Positions 7,206 through 17,361 of a stretch of DNA of 64,000 nt are shown here, in pieces (the stretch's first letter is position 1; the number at the start of each line of letters is the position of its first letter). Below the pieces are notes generated by a model. It ran no database searches and had not been told where the DNA came from. It saw only the letters and a program-made list of their open reading frames with translations. The DNA is from an uncultured Actinomycetota bacterium. GTDB lineage: Bacteria; Actinomycetota; Actinomycetes; Actinomycetales; Kineosporiaceae. The stretch is taken from positions 798,734 through 862,733 of the forward strand of contig CAWGFD010000002.1 in the NCBI GenBank assembly GCA_963821825.1, written 5' to 3'. The position numbers and the translations under genes are program-made.

Positions 7206-8510
7206 TCAGTGCCCCGCACCGGCCCCGCTCAACCCTGCCGGGACCTCCTCCCGGCGCTCGGTAGCCTGCCCGCCGTCCACGGCCCGGAGCCGGCCGGTCA
7301 CCGTGAAGATCGCTACCGCGACCAGCAGGCTGGCCACACACAGCAGGCCGAGCGGCAGCACCGAGCTGGTGCCGGCCGCCCCGACCAGCGGGGAGAGCAG
7401 CCCACCGACGGAGAACTGGAACAGGCCGAGCAGGGCGGAGGCCGCGCCGGCCCGCTCGGGGTGCAGCATCATCGCCTGGCTGGAGGCCATCGGCATCGCC
7501 ATCCCGACACCGAAGACCATCAGCCACAGCGGGCCCGCCACGCCGAAGAAGCCGACGCCGGGCAGCAGCGCGTCGCCCAGGAGGACGGCGGCGGCCAGGG
7601 TCGCCACGCCGAGGCCGATGCCGAGCAGCCGGCGCTGGCCGACCCGCCCGGACAGCCCACCGGTCAGCTGGGTGCCGCAGACCAGGGCGACCGAGTTCGC
7701 CCCGAAGACCAGGCCGAACGCGCTCGGGCTGAGCCCGAACACGTCGCGGAAGATGAACGAGCTGGCCGACACGTAGCTGAACAGGGCGGCGAAGGTGAAG
7801 GCCACCACCAGCGCGCTGCCCATGAAGGCGCGGTCGCGCAGCAGGGAGCGGTAGCTGCGCAGGCTCTCCGGCAGCCCGGCGGTCCGCCGGCGCTCCGCCG
7901 GCAACGACTCCTGCAGCACCAGGCTGACCACCAGGGTCATCACCAGGCCGACCGACCCCAGCACGATGAACAGCCCTCGCCAGCCGGTGGTGCGCAGCAG
8001 CAGGCCACCCAGGGTGGGCGCCAGGATCGGCACCACGCCGACCACGAGCATCAGCCGCGCGAAGGCCCGGGCCAGCTGGTCGCCCTCGGCCAGGTCGCGG
8101 ACGACGGCCCGGGCGACGACCAGGCCGGCCGAGCCGGCCAGCCCCTGCGCGAAGCGCAGACCGGTCAGGGTGACGATCGAGGGCGCGAAGGCGCAGGCCA
8201 AGGAGATCAGGGCCCAGCCGCCCAGGCCCAGGATGATCGGCCGGCGCCGGCCGACCGCGTCGGAGATCGGCCCGGCGATCAGCTGGCCGATCGCCAGCCC
8301 GATGACGGTGGCGGTCAGGGTGAGCTGGACCGCCGACTCGCTGGCGTGCATGTCCCTGGCCAGGTCCGGGAAGGACGGCAGGTACATGTCGATCGACAGC
8401 GCGCCCAGCGCGGTGATCGTGCCGAGCACGATCAGCCGGGCAGCGGTCAGCCCGGACGTCGGGGCGGCAGCGGCCGGCCCGGTCGGGCGGCGGGCAGAAG
8501 TGATGGACAT
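7206..8510 (-). CDS. MFS drug/H+ antiporter, Bcr/CflA-like
   Basis: 434 aa with 12 predicted TM helices. MFS motif A GPISDAVGRRRPI. The N-terminal region SIDMYLPSFPDLA is typical of Bcr/CflA. Confidence 0.85.
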   Translation of the reverse strand: MSITSARRPTGPAAAAPTSGLTAARLIVLGTITALGALSIDMYLPSFPDLARDMHASESAVQLTLTATVIGLAIGQLIAGPISDAVGRRRPIILGLGGWALISLACAFAPSIVTLTGLRFAQGLAGSAGLVVARAVVRDLAEGDQLARAFARLMLVVGVVPILAPTLGGLLLRTTGWRGLFIVLGSVGLVMTLVVSLVLQESLPAERRRTAGLPESLRSYRSLLRDRAFMGSALVVAFTFAALFSYVSASSFIFRDVFGLSPSAFGLVFGANSVALVCGTQLTGGLSGRVGQRRLLGIGLGVATLAAAVLLGDALLPGVGFFGVAGPLWLMVFGVGMAMPMASSQAMMLHPERAGAASALLGLFQFSVGGLLSPLVGAAGTSSVLPLGLLCVASLLVAVAIFTVTGRLRAVDGGQATERREEVPAGLSGAGAGH

Positions 8511-8783: not shown

Positions 8784-11408
8784 TCAGCAGCCCGGTAAGC
8801 AGCCCGCGGTGCCGCCGACGACGCGCAGGGGTCCCTTCCCCGGCAGGCGCCGGGCCCTGGTCGACAGCAGGGTCGACAGGCCGTCGGGGGTGGCGGGGCG
8901 GCTGATGAAGTAGCCCTGCACGGTGTGGCAGCCGAGCTGCTCCAGGGCGGTCAGCGTGCGCTGGTCCTCGATCCCCTCAGCGACGACCTCCAGACCCAGG
9001 CCGGAGGCCAGGTCGATGATCGCCCGGACCAGCAGCTCGGCTCGGCCCCGGCCGTCGGCGGCGTCCCGGACGCCCGGCAGGTGGGGCACCCCGGCGCCAG
9101 TCATGCCCTGCACGAACGAGCGGTCGATCTTGACCTCCTGGACCGGCAGCGCCTGCAGGTAGGACAACGAGGAGTAGCCGGTACCGAAGTCGTCCAGGGA
9201 CAGCCGGACGCCCAGGCCGACCAGCGCCTTGAGCACCGGCAGCGTCGCGTCCGGGTCGCCCATCACGCTGCTCTCGGTGATCTCCAGCACCAGCACCTCG
9301 GCCGGAAGCCCGACGTCGTTGAGCGCCTGGGAGACCATGGCCAGCAGGCTGTCGTCGTTAAGGTTCCGGGCCGAGAGGTTCACCGACACGCTGAGGTCGT
9401 AGCCCTCGTCCCGCCAGGCGCGGCACTGCCGCAGCGCGGTGCCGAGCACGGTGCGTAGCAGGTCACCGATCAGCCCGGTCGACTCGGCCAGCGGGACGAA
9501 CACGTCCGGCGGTACCCAGCCGTGCTGGGGGTGCCGCCAGCGCACCAGCGCCTCGACCCCGCGGATCTGCCGGTCGGCCAGGCCGAGCAGCGGCTGGTAG
9601 TCCACGCTGAGCTGGTCGGCGGCCATCGCCGTCTGGAGGTCGGCGACCAGGGCCAGCCGCTCCGCCCGGCCCTTGTCCAGCTCGGGGCTGAACAGCGCCC
9701 AGGGCTGCCCGCCGCTCTTGGCCGCGTACATGGCCAGGTCGGCCTGGCGCAGCAGGTCGGCGCAGTCGCTGGCGCCGCGCCGGCTGACCGAGACCCCGAT
9801 GCAGGCGTCGGCGGTGACCACGTGGTCATCGAGCGCGACCGGCACCCGCAGTGCGGCGGCCGCCTGGGTGGCCACCGAGGTGGCGGACGCTTCGGCGGCG
9901 CGCCGGTCCGGGCCGAGCTGGGGCAACAGGATGGCGAACTCGTCCCCGCCGAGCCGGGCCACCAGCGCGCCGGGCGGTGCGAGCTGGGCGAGCCGCTGGC
10001 CCACCACGACCAGCAGCTTGTCGCCGGTGGAGTGACCGAGGGTGTCGTTGACGTCCTTGAAGCGGTTCAGGTCCAGCAGCAGCATGGCCACCCGGGCCGG
10101 CTCGCCGTCGAGCAGGGACGGCGGGACGGCGCTCAGCGCGGTGAGCTGGTCGTCGAGCATCGCCCGGTTGGCCAGCTGGGTCAGGGCGTCGTGGTTGGCG
10201 TCGTGCCGCAGCTGCTCGACCAGTCCGGCGCTGCGCAGCGCCACGGCCAGGTGGGCCGAGAGGGTCTGGGCCAGCTCCAGGTCGGTGGTGGTGAAGGTGA
10301 CCGAGTCGCCGAGCCGGTCGGCGACGGTCAGGACGCCGAGCGTGGACTCCCCGTCCAGGACCGGGACGACGATCGCGTCGCGGACCTCGTGCAGGTCGGC
10401 CCATCGGCGCAGCGCCTTGTCCCTGCTGCGCCGGGGCACCAGGACGGCCGCCCCGTCGACCATCGCCCTGGTCGCCACCCAGTCCGGGGTGCTGTCCGTG
10501 CGGGTGAGCATGTGGGGGAGGGGACCGTCGTCCGTGACGCGCATCGACGGGCCGCCGTACCCCGGAGCTGGCACCAGTTCGATCCACGACGCACGTAACA
10601 ACGTGCGCATCTGATCCAGTAGTCGCCCCGCAAGCTCACTTTGGCTGAGCGCCCCCCGGCCTTCGGCCACGAAGGCGTGCACCAACTCTAAAGACTGGTG
10701 CCGCCGGTGAAGGACCACGAATGCTCGACGTACCAGCAGGATGGCCGGTGCGGTGAGGGCGACGATCGTGATGCCCAGAGGGCCACTCGACACCAGCAGG
10801 ATCAAGGTCAGGGCCGCGATGCCGGCGGCGGCACTCGCGAGTGCTGCCGCTCCCGCGACCCCCGTGGCAGCATGAATGGGCACGGGGGATCCGTGCAGTT
10901 TGAGCACGGCCATGAGGCAGGCAGCCGTGACGAGTTCGGAGATCACGTCAGCGAGAAGCACCGCAATACCGATGGCCGTGGTCAGATGGTCGCTGGCCTG
11001 CGCCATCAGTTGGAGCGCGAAGACAGCTGTAACCGCCTTGGTGGCGGCCAAGCACAGGTTCACGGCTGCCTTGATGTGCTTCGGGTGCTGCAGGGCAGCC
11101 ACAAACCCGGCACCCGTCATCGCGACGGCGACAGCGCCGACCGGAGGAAGCAGCAGGATGGCGAGAACCACTGAGACGCCGGACAGGTGGATGCCCAGTG
11201 CGGACCCGCGGACCTCGACCTGTAGGACGGTCAGCTCTCCCGCTGCATACATCAGGACCAAACCCACGCCGAGCAGGGCGAGCACAGGAGTCGCCTGGCC
11301 GCCGACCATGGGCTGTGGCTGGGCGCGAAGCAGGACGAGGCCGACGATCGCCGTCAACACGAACAGCAGGGCCGCGATCGGCTTCACTCCGGCTCGTTCG
11401 CGAACCAC
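8784..11408 (-). CDS. Polytopic membrane GAF-GGDEF-EAL protein (c-di-GMP synthase/phosphodiesterase)
   Basis: About 260 aa of N-terminal TM helices followed by a GAF-like segment. GGDEF motif ARLGGDEFAILL. EAL motifs VEALVRWRHP and LDDFGTGYSSLSYL. GTG start at 11408. Confidence 0.9.
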   Translation of the reverse strand: MVRERAGVKPIAALLFVLTAIVGLVLLRAQPQPMVGGQATPVLALLGVGLVLMYAAGELTVLQVEVRGSALGIHLSGVSVVLAILLLPPVGAVAVAMTGAGFVAALQHPKHIKAAVNLCLAATKAVTAVFALQLMAQASDHLTTAIGIAVLLADVISELVTAACLMAVLKLHGSPVPIHAATGVAGAAALASAAAGIAALTLILLVSSGPLGITIVALTAPAILLVRRAFVVLHRRHQSLELVHAFVAEGRGALSQSELAGRLLDQMRTLLRASWIELVPAPGYGGPSMRVTDDGPLPHMLTRTDSTPDWVATRAMVDGAAVLVPRRSRDKALRRWADLHEVRDAIVVPVLDGESTLGVLTVADRLGDSVTFTTTDLELAQTLSAHLAVALRSAGLVEQLRHDANHDALTQLANRAMLDDQLTALSAVPPSLLDGEPARVAMLLLDLNRFKDVNDTLGHSTGDKLLVVVGQRLAQLAPPGALVARLGGDEFAILLPQLGPDRRAAEASATSVATQAAAALRVPVALDDHVVTADACIGVSVSRRGASDCADLLRQADLAMYAAKSGGQPWALFSPELDKGRAERLALVADLQTAMAADQLSVDYQPLLGLADRQIRGVEALVRWRHPQHGWVPPDVFVPLAESTGLIGDLLRTVLGTALRQCRAWRDEGYDLSVSVNLSARNLNDDSLLAMVSQALNDVGLPAEVLVLEITESSVMGDPDATLPVLKALVGLGVRLSLDDFGTGYSSLSYLQALPVQEVKIDRSFVQGMTGAGVPHLPGVRDAADGRGRAELLVRAIIDLASGLGLEVVAEGIEDQRTLTALEQLGCHTVQGYFISRPATPDGLSTLLSTRARRLPGKGPLRVVGGTAGCLPGC

Positions 11409-11480
11409 GCGTCACCCCCTACTCTCGACTGATCCGCGGTGCTTCTATGAAGCGATTCGAATGTGCGGGACCGGTGCCGC

Positions 11481-11942
11481 TCAATCCCACTTGATCCCGT
11501 TGACGGACGCGCCACCCTGGATGGTAGTAGGAGCGCTCGCGGTGGCGACGCCGTCCCACTTGATGCCGGTGGGGTTGGCGTCCCACTTGATGCCCAGGGG
11601 GGTGAGAGCGGTGGCGACGCCGTCCCACTTGATGCCGAGCGGGTTGGAGTCCCACTTGATGCCGGTGGGGTTGGCGTCCCACTTGATGCCCAGGGGGGTG
11701 AGAGCGGTGGCAACGCCGTCCCACTTGATGCCGAGTGGGTTGGAGTCCCACTTGATGCCGGTGGGGTTGGCGTCCCACTTGATGCCCAGGGGGGTGAGAG
11801 CGGTGGCAACGCCGTCCCACTTGATGCCGGTGGGGTTGGCGTCCCACTTGAGGCCGGCGGGTCCGGCGACAGCCAGGCCTCCGGCGGCGAGCAGGCCGGT
11901 CAGAGCAAGAGCAGCGGCGCGGTAGGCCTTCCGTGGCGACAT
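11481..11942 (-). CDS. Secreted repeat protein made of 11 GIKWD-type nonapeptide modules (no family recognised)
   Basis: ATG at 11942 is preceded by GGAGG 7 nt upstream. Signal peptide MSPRKAYRAAALALTGLLAAGGLAVA. The rest reads GLKWD-ANPTGIKWD-GVATALTPLGIKWD-ANPTGIKWD-SNPLGIKWD... and ends exactly on ...NGIKWD-stop. The first 39 codons of the track ORF (11481..12059) are dropped. Confidence 0.8.
   Translation of the reverse strand: MSPRKAYRAAALALTGLLAAGGLAVAGPAGLKWDANPTGIKWDGVATALTPLGIKWDANPTGIKWDSNPLGIKWDGVATALTPLGIKWDANPTGIKWDSNPLGIKWDGVATALTPLGIKWDANPTGIKWDGVATASAPTTIQGGASVNGIKWD
11538..11850. repeat. Tandem repeat, 96-bp unit, about 3.3 near-identical copies (unit starts at 11601, 11697 and 11793, plus a partial copy from about 11538)
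   Basis: Direct comparison of ggtgagagcggtggc[g/a]acgccgtcccacttgatgccgag... units. Contiguous, without spacers. Codes for the GIKWD modules on the minus strand. Confidence 0.9.
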
Positions 11943-12113
11943 CGTGTACCTCCAGTTGATCCGGGTGGGCTTTCCCCCGGTAACAGCCAGTGTCGGGCTG
12001 GTAACGGAGGCTCTTGAGTCAAGTTGGTCACCCATCACCGTGTCGCACCAGTGGAACAATCACTATTGATGTATGGGTTGCCAGTCTCTGAGGGTCGGTC
12101 TTACAGTCTGCGC

Positions 12114-13118
12114 ATGACACCTCCGGCTCTGGACGACGTATTGCGACGGGTCGCGGCCGGCCAGCTGACGCCCGAGGCGGCCCTGGCGACCCTTGATGAT
12201 CTCAGGCGGACGACCCCCTCGGAGACTGGCGAGGGGGGTGAGGGCCTGGACACCCAGCAGGGCCCCGACGACGCGGACCTGCCCACGCCGCCTGCCGGCG
12301 CTGCGACCTCCTTGGTCGGCGGCCCGGACAGCATCGAGGACGAGGAGCTCGGCGTGGCGGAGCCCGAGTCGGCTGGCGGGCCGTGGGTGGAGCCGGCTCC
12401 GGTCGGGTCGGCCAGGCGCTCCCGCGAGGAGGGCGCGTCCGGCGGCGGCACCGCGGTCGACCCGTTCGCCCGTGCGGTCAAGGTCGTCGTCAGCTACTGC
12501 AGCGCGCACATCATCGCCGATCCCACCGTCCGCGACGTCTCGGTCTCCGGGTCTCACACGATCACCCGCCAGGGCGATCTGATCGTCGTGCAGAGCCCGG
12601 ATGTTCCCCCGCTGTTCACCCAGGACGCCGCCGGCGCGGCCCGGTTCGCCATGACGACCATGCCTCAGACCATGGCCTGGGCCAAGGCATGGAAGGACCA
12701 CCACATGCTGGTCCGGTTCAACCCGCACCGGCCGCTGGTGGTGGAGCTGTCCGGCGGCAGCGCCCGGATCGGCGGCGGGGAGGCCGGGGTGCGGATCAGT
12801 GCCCGGGCGGGTTCGGTCCGGCTCGAGCAAGTCCGCGGCCCGCTCGAGATCGACGCCGCCTCCTCCTCGGTGCGCGGCACGGTCCAGCCGGAGGGCAGCT
12901 GCTCGCTGAAGGCGGACAGCGCGGCGGTGCGGCTGGGTCTGCTGCCGGGCACCGACCTGCTCGTGCACGCCACCTACCGGATGGGCAAGGTGGTGCTACC
13001 CGGCCCGCAGACGCGGATCGACCCGGACACCGTGGAGACGGTGCTCGGCGCCGGCCGGGGGCGCTGGGACATCGACGCCGTGATGAGCAGCGTGGTCCTG
13101 GCGGAGGTCCGGCGATGA
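12114..13118 (+). CDS. Beta-strand-repeat protein (DUF4097/LiaG-YvlB-like C-terminal half) with SHOCT-like N-terminal helix and acidic linker
   Basis: ATG at 12114 gives MTPPALDDVLRRVAAGQLTPEAALATLDDL. The C-terminal half has reiterated short strands (VSVSGSHTITRQGDLIVV, VELSGGSARIGG, VRISARAGSVRLE, LEIDAASSSVRGTV, LKADSAAVRLGL). Translationally coupled to the following DUF2089 gene. Confidence 0.55.
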   Translation: MTPPALDDVLRRVAAGQLTPEAALATLDDLRRTTPSETGEGGEGLDTQQGPDDADLPTPPAGAATSLVGGPDSIEDEELGVAEPESAGGPWVEPAPVGSARRSREEGASGGGTAVDPFARAVKVVVSYCSAHIIADPTVRDVSVSGSHTITRQGDLIVVQSPDVPPLFTQDAAGAARFAMTTMPQTMAWAKAWKDHHMLVRFNPHRPLVVELSGGSARIGGGEAGVRISARAGSVRLEQVRGPLEIDAASSSVRGTVQPEGSCSLKADSAAVRLGLLPGTDLLVHATYRMGKVVLPGPQTRIDPDTVETVLGAGRGRWDIDAVMSSVVLAEVRR

Positions 13119-13480
13119 GCCACCCGGCGCACCGTCCGCCGCAGGACTGCCCGGTCTGCGGAGACCACCTGCTGATCAGCCAGCTCGGCTGCGACCGGTG
13201 CGGTACCGCGCTGTCCGGCCGGTTCACGACGTGTGCCTTCTGCGGACTGGGTGAGGCCCAGCGCGAGCTGCTGCGCGTCTTCCTGGTCTCCCGCGGCAAC
13301 CTCAAGGAGGTCGAACGGCACCTGGGCGTGAGCTACCCGACGGCCCGCGCCCGGTACGAGGAGCTGCTCACCGCCCTGGGCCTGTCCGAACCGCCGGAGG
13401 TGGACCCCCGGCTGGCCACCCTCCGGGCGCTGGCCTCTGGCGAGATCACCCCTGACCAGGCGCGCGCGAACCTGGACTGA
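13115..13480 (+). CDS. DUF2089-family zinc-ribbon plus HTH protein (putative transcription factor)
   Basis: ATGA overlap with the upstream gene. Zinc ribbon CPVCGDHLLISQLGCDRCGTAL...CAFCG. HTH-like RELLRVFLVSRGNLKEVERHLGVSYPTARARYEELL. C-terminal SHOCT-like LASGEITPDQARANLD. Confidence 0.7.
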   Translation: MSHPAHRPPQDCPVCGDHLLISQLGCDRCGTALSGRFTTCAFCGLGEAQRELLRVFLVSRGNLKEVERHLGVSYPTARARYEELLTALGLSEPPEVDPRLATLRALASGEITPDQARANLD

Positions 13481-13574: not shown

Positions 13575-13871
13575 TCAGCGGGGGTTCTTGGTGAAGTCAG
13601 TGCCTTCCAGCCGCAGGGCCAGCCGGGGACACACCTGCACCGCCTTCTCGGCGTGCGGCAGCAGCCGGACCGGCACCTCCACCCCGTCCCCGCGCCGCCG
13701 GCTCCGGTCGCGGGCCACCGGGTAGCCCCAGGGGTCGGTGTCCAGCACCTCGGGCAGCAGCTCGGCGCACAGGCCCCGGCCGTCGCACGCCGTCCAGTCG
13801 ATCCGCAACCGGGCGGTGGTCCGCACTGTGCGGGCCGCCGGCGCGGAGCCGGAGGTGGTCGGTCCGCTCAT
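13575..13871 (-). CDS. Small ferredoxin-like iron-sulfur protein
   Basis: 98 aa. Cys pattern CDGRGLC ... VCP resembles single-cluster actinobacterial ferredoxins. ATGA overlap with the upstream NuoF-like gene. Confidence 0.6.
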   Translation of the reverse strand: MSGPTTSGSAPAARTVRTTARLRIDWTACDGRGLCAELLPEVLDTDPWGYPVARDRSRRRGDGVEVPVRLLPHAEKAVQVCPRLALRLEGTDFTKNPR

Positions 13872-15184
13872 CGCTCGCTCCTGCTGTCGCGCTGGTCGTC
13901 CTGAGCCGCCTCGTCGGCGAGGCAGCGGCCGGACCGGTGCGCCACCACGTCCGCGGCGAAGACCTGCAGCGCGCTACGCACCAGCCGGACCGTGCCGTCG
14001 GGGTGGTGGCAGGCGCCGCGGCCCTCGACCAGGCCGGCCAGTGCCGTGGTGTCGCGGACGGCGTGGTTGACGGTGCCGGCGATCGTGTCGGTGTAGCCCA
14101 GCCGGTCCGGCCGGGCGAGCTGGGCCAGGGACTCGGCCAGCGCCGGCAGCCCGAACATGCAGGGCCCGCACTGCCGGGCGGACTGGCCGGCCAGATAGGC
14201 GGTGATGTCGGCGGTGGCGCGCAGGCCGCAGCTGCCGGAGTCCAGCGCGATCAGCACCCCAGCCCCGGGGCTGGCGCCGTGCGGGCCGAGCCCGGACCGG
14301 GACATGGTGGTCTGCTCCAGCCGCTGGGCCGGCACCCAGGCGCCGTGGTACCCGCCGACCAGCACGGCGAGAAGCTCGTGCGCCGGCCCACCGGCCCGGG
14401 TCAGCAGCTGGGCCAACGTCTCGCCGTAGGCCGCCTCCACCACGCCGGGCTGGTGCACGGAGCCACTGACCGTGGCCAGGAAGGTGCCCGGGTCCTCGGC
14501 CGTGCCCACGCTGCGGAACCACTGCGGCCCGAACCGCCCGATCAGGGCCACCTGGGCGAGGGTCTCCGCGTTCTGCACGACGGTCGGCAGGCCGAAGGCG
14601 CCGCGGACCGCGGGGATGTGCCGCTTGAAGGAGGGGACGGCGCTCCGTCCGGTCACCGCGGCGATCACCGCGGACTCCTCACCGGAGACGAACGTGTCGG
14701 GGGCGAGGACGACCTGCACCGGCAGCCGGTCGCGCCGGGCCGCGAGGCGCTCGGCCAGCGCGGGAGCCACGGCGCGGGCGCCGACCCGTCCGGTGTAGAG
14801 GTAGGCCCGGGTGGCACCCACCGCGTGCGCCATGGCCGCCAGGCCGTCCAGCACCAGGTGCGGGGCCCTGGTCAGCAGGGCGGCGTCCTTGCTGCTGGCC
14901 GGTTCACCCTCTGCGGCATTGGCGATCACCACGGCGCCACCCGCGGCCTGGCTCCGGGCCGCGGCCGTGCCGGCCTTGCGGAAGGTGGGGAAGGCGGCGC
15001 CGCCACGGCCGCGCAGGCCGCTGGCCTCCAGGGCGGCCAGCACGGCGCCGCGGTCCGCGGGTAGCTGCAGTGCGCCGAAGCGCCGCTCGTGGGTGGCCAG
15101 GTCGGCGGCCGTCGAGGTGATCCGGCGGGTACCGCGCGGGGCGGCGGCGCCGCGGTCGAGGTCAGGGTCCATGGTGGTGCTCAT
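13868..15184 (-). CDS. NuoF-like NAD(P)H-binding FMN/iron-sulfur protein (respiratory complex I 51-kDa subunit family)
   Basis: Start MSTTMDPD at 15184 (ATGA overlap with the upstream gene). LRGRGGAAFPTFRK matches the NuoF GRGGAGFPTG motif. QCGPCMFGLPAL and the ACHHPDG Cys region match the 4Fe-4S module. The 186 extra N-terminal codons of the track ORF overlap the next gene and are rejected. Confidence 0.8.
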   Translation of the reverse strand: MSTTMDPDLDRGAAAPRGTRRITSTAADLATHERRFGALQLPADRGAVLAALEASGLRGRGGAAFPTFRKAGTAAARSQAAGGAVVIANAAEGEPASSKDAALLTRAPHLVLDGLAAMAHAVGATRAYLYTGRVGARAVAPALAERLAARRDRLPVQVVLAPDTFVSGEESAVIAAVTGRSAVPSFKRHIPAVRGAFGLPTVVQNAETLAQVALIGRFGPQWFRSVGTAEDPGTFLATVSGSVHQPGVVEAAYGETLAQLLTRAGGPAHELLAVLVGGYHGAWVPAQRLEQTTMSRSGLGPHGASPGAGVLIALDSGSCGLRATADITAYLAGQSARQCGPCMFGLPALAESLAQLARPDRLGYTDTIAGTVNHAVRDTTALAGLVEGRGACHHPDGTVRLVRSALQVFAADVVAHRSGRCLADEAAQDDQRDSRSER

Positions 15185-15804
15185 CGCGAGACTCTCTGTC
15201 GGGACCGGCCGATGGCCGGGGCGGGCAGGGGGAGCGGGACGGCGGAGGTGTCGCGGACGGCGGACCGGTCGCTGAAGCGGTCGCTCGCCCGCCAGACCAG
15301 CGCGGTCCCGACGGCGAGCACGCAGCCGGCGGTCACCGCCCACAGCCAGGCCGTGCCCGAGTCGGTGCCGGTGCCCAGGCCGTGCGCGACCGCCACCGGC
15401 CAGGACACGTAGGCCAGCCAGTGCACCGCACGCCAGGGACGTCGACCCAGGCGGTGCCGGAGCAGGCTGGTCACCACCAGGGCGGCGACCAGGTCGCTGG
15501 CCAGCGTGCCCAGGCCCAGCCACATCGGGCGGTAGGTGGCCGTGAACGGCAGCACCACATCGGCCAGCTTCAGCTGGGCGTACGGGTCGATCAGCAGTGT
15601 GCTGATGTGTACGCCCAGCAGCAGCACGACCAGCAGGCTGATCGTGCGGTGCAGCTCGGCGACGGCGAACCGCGGCAGGCCCGGCAGCGGCCGCGACGAG
15701 CGGGTGGTGATGCCCATCATGACGGTCAGCGTGAGCAGGCACAGGGTGGTCACCCCGGTGCCACGTGCCACGTACCAGGCAGCGTTGGTCAGCTCGGCGC
15801 TCAT
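15181..15804 (-). CDS. Ferric-reductase-like (MsrQ/FRD-type) six-TM di-heme b membrane protein
   Basis: Start MSAELTNAAWYVARG at 15804. Six hydrophobic helices with four conserved-position His residues (ELHRT, GVHIS, AVHWLAY, VAHGLG). ATGA overlaps on both sides. Confidence 0.75.
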   Translation of the reverse strand: MSAELTNAAWYVARGTGVTTLCLLTLTVMMGITTRSSRPLPGLPRFAVAELHRTISLLVVLLLGVHISTLLIDPYAQLKLADVVLPFTATYRPMWLGLGTLASDLVAALVVTSLLRHRLGRRPWRAVHWLAYVSWPVAVAHGLGTGTDSGTAWLWAVTAGCVLAVGTALVWRASDRFSDRSAVRDTSAVPLPLPAPAIGRSRQRVSR

Positions 15805-16778
15805 GCGGCCACCTCCACGGTGATCGGTCGGTCGGAGTGCTCGACGGCGTCCTTCGGCCAGGCGGCGGTGCGCAGCACCCGGCCGTCGTGGGTGACCAGC
15901 CGGGCCTTGGCGCCCAGCCCGGCCAGCCACGAAGGCGCGCTCGCGCCGCGGACCAGCGCGGCGGTGGTCAGGGTGTTCGCGGCGACGCAGTCGCCGGCCA
16001 CCACGGTGACGCTGGCCCAGGGGCTGTCGGCCGGCATGCCGGTCCGGGGGTCGAGCACGTGGTGCAGCCGCTCACCGGCTCGCCACCAGGTGCGGCGCTG
16101 GGTCGAGGAGGTGGCGATCGCGCTGCCGGCGCCGAGCGTAAGCCGGGTCGCCGGGTCGCGCGGCAGGTCCTGGACATCGACGGTCCATCCCCGTGACGGC
16201 GCGGGCCCGGCGGTGGCGATGTCGCCGCCCAGCTCGACCAGCACACCGGTGCCGAGGCCCTCGGCGACCAGGGCCGCAGCCCGGTCCGCGGCGTAGGCCT
16301 TGGCGGTGGCGCCGAGGTCGACCAGGGTGCCGGCCGGGACGCGGACGCTGCCCTCGCCCAGCTCCACGTCGGTCCAGCGCACCCGCCGGTCCAGGCAGAC
16401 CCGGTCGAAGCCGCCGAGCCGGTCCGTGGAGCGGCCCAGGCTGTGCTCGTCGTGGTAGCCCAGCTCGACCAGGACGGCGCCCACGGTCGGGTCGACGTCC
16501 CCGTCGGTGCGCTCGGCGGCGAGCAGCGCGGTGGCCAGCAGGTCGGCCAGCAGCGGTGAGATCCGGGCGGTGCCCGGGCCGCCCGCCAGCAGGCTGACCT
16601 CCGAGTCGGGCCGGAACCGGCTGGCCGCCCGATCGACCTCGGCCAGCAACCGCTGGGTGATCTCCACGGCCGCGGCCAGCGCCGACGGGTCGGTCACCAC
16701 GACCCGCGCCGTCGTCGACCACACCGGCCAGCTGCTGCTCACCGCGGGGGTCTCGGGGGTCGCGGCGGTCATCGTCAT
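15801..16778 (-). CDS. apbE: FAD:protein FMN transferase (ApbE family)
   Basis: Start MTMTAATPE at 16778 (ATGA overlap). RFRPDSEVSLL and LVDLGATAKAYAADRAA correspond to ApbE core motifs. No obvious signal peptide or lipobox. Confidence 0.85.
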   Translation of the reverse strand: MTMTAATPETPAVSSSWPVWSTTARVVVTDPSALAAAVEITQRLLAEVDRAASRFRPDSEVSLLAGGPGTARISPLLADLLATALLAAERTDGDVDPTVGAVLVELGYHDEHSLGRSTDRLGGFDRVCLDRRVRWTDVELGEGSVRVPAGTLVDLGATAKAYAADRAAALVAEGLGTGVLVELGGDIATAGPAPSRGWTVDVQDLPRDPATRLTLGAGSAIATSSTQRRTWWRAGERLHHVLDPRTGMPADSPWASVTVVAGDCVAANTLTTAALVRGASAPSWLAGLGAKARLVTHDGRVLRTAAWPKDAVEHSDRPITVEVAA

Positions 16779-17140
16779 GACCCGCTCGAGGAACCCTGCG
16801 CGGCGCCCCCGCCGGACCCGTTGGCGCTGCCGCCGCCGGCCCATCCCGGGACGATCCCGGAGGAGCTGCTGGAGGAGCCGCTCGACCCGGTGCCGGCGGT
16901 GCTGCCCGAACTGGTGGTGCCTGAGCCGGTGGTGCCTGAGCCGGTGGTGCCGGCGCCGGTGGTGCCTGAGCCGGTGGTGCCTGAGCCGGTGGTGCCTGAG
17001 CCGCTGGTGCCGTTCGTGCTGGACGCGCCGGTGCTTGCGGCGGCCTCGTGCACGACCACCGCGGTGCCGATGGCGGAGAGCGCGAGGACCCCCGTGGTGA
17101 TCGAGGCGATCCGCCTCAGGCCGGTCTCCCTGCTGGTCAT
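16775..17140 (-). CDS. Membrane-anchored Ser/Gly/Thr low-complexity protein with (GSGTT)n repeat
   Basis: ATG at 17140 is preceded by GAGGAGAGGA. N-terminus MTSRETGLRRIASITTGVLALSAIGTAVVV (N-in anchor), then about 90 aa of only S/G/T/A. First gene of the ATGA-coupled operon. Confidence 0.65.
   Translation of the reverse strand: MTSRETGLRRIASITTGVLALSAIGTAVVVHEAAASTGASSTNGTSGSGTTGSGTTGSGTTGAGTTGSGTTGSGTTSSGSTAGTGSSGSSSSSSGIVPGWAGGGSANGSGGGAAQGSSSGS
16913..17017. repeat. 15-bp in-frame tandem repeat (ggtggtgcctgagcc, about 7 copies) encoding GSGTT pentapeptides on the minus strand
   Basis: Units at 16913, 16928, 16943 (variant), 16958, 16973 and 16988, plus a degenerate copy. Confidence 0.9.
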
Positions 17141-17361
17141 GATGGTCCTCTCCTCGGTCTGCCCCGGTGCGGCCGGGGTTGCCGCCATGCGGCTGGCCTG
17201 CTCACCATCGTGGGTCCAGGGTGCCGGGCCCCGATGAGGGCGGGCTGTGTGCTCCCTGTGCACCTGAGAGATGGTTCAGCAGCGATCCGTGGTTGACCAC
17301 TCGCGCGTTGGTCGCCAGGGTGGGGGCGCCGGAGTGCAGAGTCGCGCGGAAGGACACGGAC

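Follow-up and report, generated by a model that had tools for sequence, protein, structure and literature searches.

The question raised by the locus described here is what a small exported protein, built almost wholly from one reiterated tryptophan motif, could be doing beside a gene for the turnover of cyclic di-GMP (c-di-GMP). The locus lies in a 64,000-nucleotide stretch (the window) of contig CAWGFD010000002.1 from an uncultured bacterium of the Kineosporiaceae (Actinomycetota), and the gene in question, here called the W-motif gene, occupies positions 11481..11942 of the (−) strand. An earlier note, made from the letters of the window alone, had picked it out as encoding a secreted repeat protein. 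Comparison with other loci adds two things that the note did not contain: the motif is common to the C-terminal tails of a group of S8 subtilases, and the motif genes are tightly linked to a single family of membrane sensor enzymes. On this basis we put forward, tentatively, the reading that the motif array acts on the sensor, and weigh it below against the alternatives.

A gene for a repeat protein with a signal peptide

The open reading frame (ORF) at 11481..11942 (−), stop codon included, is a real gene encoding a 153-aa repeat protein with a signal peptide, as the earlier note had held. Its ATG (11942..11940) is preceded at a distance of 6 nt by a GGAGG ribosome-binding site (11949..11953, also on the (−) strand), and the G+C content of third codon positions (GC3) is 0.87 over the whole gene and 0.91 in the repeats, compared with 0.90–0.96 in the adjoining genes. 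The good Shine–Dalgarno sequence and the G/C-rich third positions noted previously are therefore both present, and it is because GC3 is like that of the adjoining genes that this frame is taken as the coding one despite the open 'shadow' frames. The signal region (aa 1–26, 11865..11942), read from the sequence, consists of MSPRKAYRAAALALTGLLAAGGLAVA followed by GP, with a basic n-region, a hydrophobic core and an AVA motif after which cleavage is predicted; the AlphaFold2 model has a helix at residues 3–22, inside this segment. Reading of the N-terminus found no Cys, hence no lipobox, and no twin-arginine motif, and by its features it reads as a predicted Sec/signal peptidase I signal.

The 127-residue mature region (11484..11864) contains 11 G[I/L]KWD motifs with spacings of 9, 14, 9, 9, 14, 9, 9, 14, 9 and 23 residues (linkers of 4, 9 or 18 residues, with a high content of Pro, Thr and Asn), and terminates on NGIKWD, so that translation stops one residue past the last Trp (W-x-COOH). 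These figures agree with the earlier count. The accompanying list of modules stands as to the 11 GIKWD-type units and has to be amended at its two ends, as the first module is GPAGLKWD and the last a 23-residue unit, GVATASAPTTIQGGASVNGIKWD. At the DNA level the near-identical 96-bp units described before were recovered by Tandem Repeats Finder (TRF) at 11553..11861 (period 96 bp, 96% matches, score 562), the copy number being 3.2 and not the 3.3 given originally. Each unit encodes 32 residues, GVATALTPLGIKWD-ANPTGIKWD-SNPLGIKWD, and units 1 and 2 are a single synonymous base apart; the array has grown recently, in line with the earlier suggestion. The pattern GxKWD-x4-GxKWD occurs six times in the window and was not seen once in 100 shuffles of it.

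Sequence searches with the 153-aa protein gave next to nothing. There were no matches in Pfam at E values up to 10, none in a sequence search of the PDB and none among 5.8 billion proteins searched by word index, while NCBIfam returned noise only (14–18 bits against curated cutoffs of 452–481). Exhaustive phmmer against 1.84 billion representatives gave 34 weak matches, nearly all of them unrelated eukaryotic or viral low-complexity repeats, the sole related-looking one being P0137, to which we return below. The exact protein is missing from a public collection of 15 billion proteins in which the adjoining sensor, encoded on the same 3.69-Mb contig, is present, and the gene has probably been overlooked so far by gene callers. 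An index of gene positions likewise lists neither this gene nor that of the sensor. The named wall- or surface-binding repeats (chaplin, LGFP, choline-binding, GW, SLH, WxL and LysM) can be set aside, with no Pfam match and only noise in NCBIfam, which bears out the earlier failure to assign the repeat to any named family. In the literature searched, GIKWD, ARWSSARWS and strings like them do not occur, and no paper ties subtilases to sensors of the kind described below. The tryptophan motif family is thus undescribed so far.

Genome DNA was searched as well, with a scan of 185,579 genomes, each representing one species, for pairs of GxKWD motifs 2–12 residues apart. It gave 87 stretches, nearly all of them non-coding repeat elements, and a sole true coding match, the Chloroflexota locus L024 described in the next section. 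Many of the remainder (among L002–L085) come from one Bacteroidota metagenome-assembled genome (MAG), JBDKKX01, in which a short element, dispersed in over 40 copies, reads GIGIKWDFFGIKWD followed by a stop in one frame. The copies often form inverted pairs about 100 bp apart, and the element looks like a non-coding repeat of the miniature inverted-repeat transposable element (MITE) or repetitive extragenic palindromic (REP) type, with no relation to the W-motif gene.

Pairing with a membrane c-di-GMP enzyme and kinship with subtilase tails

The gene for the 874-aa sensor (8784..11408, (−)) begins 72 nt downstream of the W-motif gene on the same strand. Its product has about seven hydrophobic segments (aa 1–235) followed by GAF (aa 254–391), GGDEF (aa ~401–568) and EAL (aa ~588–850) domains, and the GGDEF, EAL and DDFGTG motifs are all intact; the c-di-GMP gene reported as a neighbour is thus confirmed and proves key to the interpretation. 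An AGGGGG ribosome-binding site for the sensor sits in the spacer (11409..11480). Scans of the W-motif gene and spacer found no terminator and no terminator-like hairpin between the genes, a search of the spacer for structured RNA was negative (fold z-score −0.87), and no regulatory RNA was found around the W-motif gene. The two genes are likely to be co-transcribed.

We then counted actinobacterial loci with a sensor orthologue (about 30–52% identity) and enough upstream DNA. In 17 of the 18 informative loci the gene that comes next upstream, in the same orientation, codes for a protein with a signal peptide (by sequence reading, as for the window protein) and C-terminal [A/G/I]-[R/K]-W-x motifs, the sole exception being a Blastococcus locus (L114). 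The gap to the sensor gene, in the subset of loci in which it was measured, runs from less than 10 to about 175 bp. From the architecture of the upstream protein the loci could be divided into three forms. Form (a) is an S8 subtilase with a (G/S/R)ARWS tail (L091, L092, L093, L094, L095, L097, L100, L103, L104, L106, L116 and, in Cellulomonas aerilata, L113 with WP_146900753.1). Form (b) is a small protein consisting of a signal peptide and several motifs and comprises the window protein, L096, L098 (6× ATPASARWS, last residues ARWS) and L112, which is the 93-aa protein WP_104433295.1 of Kineococcus xinjiangensis with seven copies of ARWM. Form (c) is a small peptide with a signal peptide and a single terminal motif, found in L088, which ends in MAGGQARHPNGAKWT (HPNGAKWT), and in L090 (= L101), which ends in HHPDGARWS. 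The W-x stop of the window protein recurs in L088, L090, L095, L098 and L103. Among these positional equivalents the motif thus ranges from one copy to arrays with periods of 5, 7–11 and 9 residues. Because motif proteins sit just before the same membrane c-di-GMP enzyme in relatives, the W-motif protein probably partners the sensor extracellularly.

The small equivalents (WP_104433295.1, L098, L096, L088 and L090) resemble the window protein in consisting solely of a signal peptide and one to seven W motifs, and in lying directly upstream of an orthologous sensor gene. They differ from it in motif residues (ARWM, ARWS and AKWT), copy number and spacing, and show no similarity to it by phmmer. 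The nearest case is L088, which adjoins the closest sensor orthologue (52% identity) and whose C-terminus, MAGGQARHPNGAKWT, resembles the last unit of the window protein, IQGGASVNGIKWD. Because of this locus and this likeness the window gene can be regarded as the positional equivalent of the single-motif gene, and it is probably its orthologue, internally amplified.

The subtilases of form (a), annotated merely as 'S8 family serine peptidase' or 'AprX', are nearest to the mycosins, though under the NCBIfam cutoff. Statistics on their tails were taken from the 120 nearest S8 homologues (56–91% identity). A tail has about 16 Trp, and 1679 of the 1830 spacings from one Trp to the next are five residues long; the protein stops at W-x in 99 of the 120 and at W in a further 9. 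Like the window protein, therefore, these tails have an x-[R/K]-W-x core and a W-x stop, belong to secreted proteins and are encoded directly upstream of a membrane GGDEF–EAL gene. They differ in their strict 5-residue period, in having about 16 units and in being fused to a catalytic domain, whereas the window protein lacks a protease domain, has spacings of 9, 14 and 23 residues with Pro-rich linkers, and carries K and D where the tails mostly carry R and S. In the Chloroflexota MAG JAQBZW010000141.1 (L024) the tail is literally GIKWD: an S8 subtilase whose catalytic domain is 32% identical to that of the Cellulomonas enzyme ends in (GIRWD)3(GIKWD)4, and its gene lies 98 bp upstream of a gene for a protein with multiple transmembrane segments and PAS, GGDEF and EAL domains. 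By sequence comparison, then, the window protein is a protease-free, internally amplified form of the tryptophan-motif tail of a mycosin-like S8 subtilase.

In a quick neighbour-joining tree of the sensor N-termini (about 350 columns, no support values) the protease-free forms fall at no fewer than four separate places among lineages with subtilase tails. This suggests that the ancestral state was a subtilase with a tail and that the catalytic domain has been lost repeatedly, at least four times; on the simplest reading the signal peptide, the motif, the position of the stop and the linkage to the sensor were all kept through these losses. As the protease was lost repeatedly while the motif was kept, the constant partner of the sensor would be the motif and not the protease.

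A further case, in which a like membrane module would serve another output, is provided by P0137, a G[V/M]SWD-repeat protein with predicted secretion that is encoded upstream of a histidine kinase gene (L089). BLASTP between the membrane domains of the kinase type and the GGDEF–EAL type was negative, and profile comparison of the kinase membrane domain with that of the window-sensor family gave 88% probability (E 2.9e-6). The kinase N-terminus scores 20.8 bits against MASE9 (Pfam PF20972, cutoff 24.3). MASE9 was defined in a paper whose authors inferred that a ligand is bound within the membrane, and no ligand is named there (bioRxiv 10.1101/2021.11.05.467447).

Possible functions of the motif array

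The explanation that we consider best, at somewhat less than an even chance, is that an exported, non-globular motif array acts on the adjacent sensor and so tunes c-di-GMP synthesis against hydrolysis. After the predicted export the array would show 11 copies of the linear motif [I/A]-[K/R]-W-x and a free K-W-D carboxy terminus and, once the signal peptide had been cut, would stay on the outside of the membrane, at its surface or close by. Its target there would be the transmembrane domain of the neighbouring enzyme, which has short loops and is MASE9-like, and the contact would lie at the outer or intramembrane face of that domain. The array could serve uncut, as a multivalent ligand, or be cut first into peptides of the motif, and in either case the engagement would set the balance between synthesis and breakdown of c-di-GMP. 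In favour of this proposal we count the pairing of the genes, the likeness to the single-copy forms, the Chloroflexota case, the conservation of the subtilase tails, the repeated loss of the protease domain, the kinase case, the absence of a confident predicted fold and the view of MASE9 in the paper cited.

Several observations weigh against this proposal. Co-transcription, the lack of a fold, physical contact with the sensor and the direction of signalling are all steps that we infer, and adjacency of the genes could mean co-regulation only, for example where c-di-GMP controls a surface protease or a factor of the matrix. The AlphaFold2 model of the 153-aa protein (mean predicted local distance difference test (pLDDT) score 36, no strands) was made on a single sequence with no alignment and is weak evidence, saying of the protein only that no confident fold was predicted. 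The window protein is neutral in net charge (11 K, 11 D), whereas the subtilase tails are Arg-rich. Those tails share the register of pentapeptide repeats, reading A-R-W-S-G, and gave sub-threshold matches to Pfam Pentapeptide_3 (E 1.4e-4) and, in the PDB, to DotG (E 8e-5) and designed solenoids; given the strict 5-residue period and this weak likeness the tails may be a folded domain and not a linear ligand. The tree behind the repeated losses is, as said, a quick one that carries no support values. The N-terminus of the Chloroflexota sensor shows no similarity to the profile of the actinobacterial membrane domain, and the membrane domain of the window sensor itself has no match in Pfam, MASE9 included, so that its link to MASE9 appears to be an indirect one.

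Chief among the alternatives, possible but on balance unlikely, is that the W array is an envelope- or matrix-binding repeat that anchors or sticks non-covalently to polymers of the wall, to the membrane surface or to the matrix, and that tethers the subtilase to the cell surface in relatives and acts here by itself as a component of surface or matrix, with the c-di-GMP enzyme adjoining merely as a regulator of surface behaviour. The glycan or cell-wall binder named in the earlier note was without direct support and stands as this rival. Mycosins have a C-terminal membrane anchor, and the combination of Trp with Arg or Lys is typical of membrane-interface or carbohydrate binding; the kinship of the subtilases with mycosins, sub-cutoff as it is, and the placing of the motifs at the very C-terminal end of secreted subtilases, the usual site of anchoring modules, are what such a role would lead one to expect. 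The tails may moreover fold as a pentapeptide-like β-helix. An AlphaFold2 model of a subtilase made with an alignment of 78 sequences has the catalytic domain at pLDDT >90 with the first W units packed on it as strands, but the last 44 residues of the tail are at pLDDT <50 and no β-helix was built. A pentapeptide-repeat reading therefore holds at best for the subtilase tails, and there below threshold: with the pentapeptide-repeat proteins proper (A[D/N]LXX β-helix; PF00805, PF13576) the likeness is limited to register and sub-threshold matches of the tails, whereas the window protein, spaced at 9, 14 and 23, has no 5-residue period and no Pfam or PDB match. Against an anchor stand the absence of a confident predicted fold for the window protein or the end of the tail, the absence from Pfam and NCBIfam searches of any match to known wall-binding repeats, the survival of the sensor pairing through at least four apparent losses of the protease domain and the single-motif peptides of L088 and L090, which have nothing to anchor and still keep position, signal peptide and W-x stop. 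A folded β-solenoid, with a 32-residue coil in which turns of ANPT, SNPL and GVATALTPL connect three IKW strands and serving as a structural or Ca2+/ligand-binding scaffold, we regard as quite improbable. It would account for the regular 9-9-14 super-repeat (about 3.3 coils) and for the Gly, Trp and Asp that are invariant in every unit, and the related tails are strictly periodic; yet the AlphaFold2 model of the window protein shows no strands, there is no match to RTX or pentapeptide-repeat hidden Markov models, the linkers are proline-rich, and the equivalents have one motif or periods of 5, 7–11 or 9 residues, so that the motif is conserved and not the length of a coil. The irregular 9/14/23 spacing adds to this, and the preference of the earlier note for a solenoid or β-roll is not upheld. 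The RTX nonapeptide β-roll (GGxGxDxUx) shares with the window protein the 9-residue spacing of many units and the conserved Gly and Asp, but the RTX consensus is not found in it, the spacing is irregular, the signal is of the Sec type instead of a C-terminal type-1 secretion signal, and Pfam gives no match.

Two further alternatives concern how the array came about or is used. That the gene is evolutionary debris, an eroded subtilase remnant whose tail has grown by recent neutral minisatellite-like expansion and has little or no function, would fit its absence from public protein collections and the lack of homologues by sequence search, and the repeat units are so nearly identical that selection would not yet have had time to show. 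The intact ribosome-binding site, ATG and signal peptide, the GC3 of 0.87–0.91, the 11 of 11 motifs that are perfect and in frame, the stop exactly after W-x as in the great majority of the subtilase tails, and the independent parallel cases L096, L098 and L112 all argue otherwise, and we think debris very improbable indeed. A polyprotein precursor, cut by a subtilase of the relatives' type into up to 11 Trp peptides (for example NPTGIKW(D)) that would act as a diffusible signal, made by the cell itself and read directly by the membrane domain of the sensor, is also improbable in our estimation. The earlier note had called a peptide precursor less likely and under-rated it, since relatives have single-motif peptides that end on the motif, or fusions of a subtilase to the array. 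Precedents are the yeast α-factor precursor, processed by the S8 protease Kex2, and the Bacillus Phr peptides, which are the C-termini of Sec-exported pro-peptides cut by subtilisin-type proteases. The W-motif system resembles these in its signal peptide, in its tandem short units or single unit at the extreme C-terminus, in the S8 protease of related loci and in the candidate receptor gene next door. It differs in that no rule for cleavage sites could be drawn from it and that the candidate receptor is a c-di-GMP enzyme instead of a G-protein-coupled receptor or an RNPP regulator. In the majority of related loci the motif array and the S8 subtilase form a single protein, and a search of the 64-kb window for a subtilase with a W tail found none. 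With the subtilase tail tblastn gave one match, at 16915..17025, an artefact produced out of frame by a different repeat gene. A ribosomally synthesized and post-translationally modified peptide (RiPP) was likewise rejected, as no modifying enzyme adjoins the W-motif gene in the window or in the related loci.

In its logic the proposed action of the array on the sensor resembles pairs of a secreted ligand and a membrane receptor, and in gene order the relatives have a parallel in LapG–LapD of Pseudomonas, where the gene for a periplasmic protease lies directly upstream of that for a membrane GGDEF–EAL protein that holds the protease outside. Related loci have the same order, a secreted protease and then a membrane GGDEF–EAL protein; their protease is of the S8 family, against the LapG-type cysteine protease, and the window protein lacks a protease domain altogether. 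The window sensor differs from LapD in its intact GGDEF and EAL motifs (degenerate in LapD) and in having a multi-pass short-loop domain and GAF but no periplasmic domain or HAMP, and it scores 128 bits against the NCBIfam LapD model, for which the cutoff is 1020.

Surroundings of the locus and implications

Divergent from the W-motif gene are genes for a 364-aa protein without a Pfam match and then for a DUF2089 zinc-ribbon/helix-turn-helix protein (13115..13480); the 'envelope-stress-type' label attached to this pair was not established. Beyond it lies a run of redox genes (13575..16844, (−)) that starts with a 4Fe-4S ferredoxin (Pfam Fer4_15) and in which, by eye from the translations, a NuoF-like flavoprotein, a ferric-reductase-like membrane protein and an ApbE-like flavin transferase were tentatively assigned; the run looks ordinary and without a tie to the W-motif gene. 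The ApbE-like ORF (15801..16844) is overlapped at its start by about 70 bp by an ORF at 16775..17263 (−) for a second low-complexity protein with a signal peptide (162 aa, (GSGTT)n pentapeptides and a Ser/Gly-rich tail, no Pfam match), and it is the antisense frame of this gene that gave rise to the spurious tblastn match mentioned above. The 64-kb window contains no rRNA, tRNA or Rfam match.

On the other side, the sensor gene of the window is followed by a gene for a major facilitator superfamily transporter (7206..8510). In the two closest orthologous loci a conserved 91-aa protein is encoded directly 3′ of the sensor gene (L088:6851-7126 and L090:6712-6987), with a borderline Pfam match to a CBM48/AMPK-glycogen-binding-like domain (22.2 bits, cutoff 22.4), and no counterpart was seen 3′ of the window sensor. 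In the same two loci the gene that diverges from the one for the small W peptide encodes a conserved protein, some 340 aa long and without a Pfam match (L088:2125-3150 and L090:1988-2998, both (−)) that ends in YGVQWRWA(A/Q...); tblastn for it in the window was negative. Ahead of distant sensor homologues (28–29% identity, in the GAF region) a 15-nt tandem repeat lies at the contig edge in L107 (1..130) and L108 (1..90), reading RFAER or ASLNG according to frame and containing no Trp, and this may be another variant of pentapeptide tail or a non-coding repeat.

Multi-pass, short-loop membrane sensor domains of the MASE type are found in many c-di-GMP enzymes and histidine kinases. Their natural signals are, to our knowledge, largely unidentified, and a tryptophan motif genetically linked to a multi-pass sensor domain and carried on a protein with a signal peptide is a candidate partner for such domains. 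The natural variants, protease-fused, multi-copy and single-copy, amount to a ready-made domain-deletion series. Were the array a polyprotein precursor, a peptide quorum signal would be wired directly into c-di-GMP turnover and the first natural ligand of a MASE-type intramembrane sensor domain would have been identified; were it an anchor, it would still be a new surface-anchoring repeat. If the link between array and sensor is a physical one, the pair would provide a testable ligand and receptor for c-di-GMP control in Actinomycetota and possibly in Chloroflexota, would account for a conserved and hitherto unremarked tail on a large subfamily of subtilases, and would add a family of small proteins that gene callers have missed.

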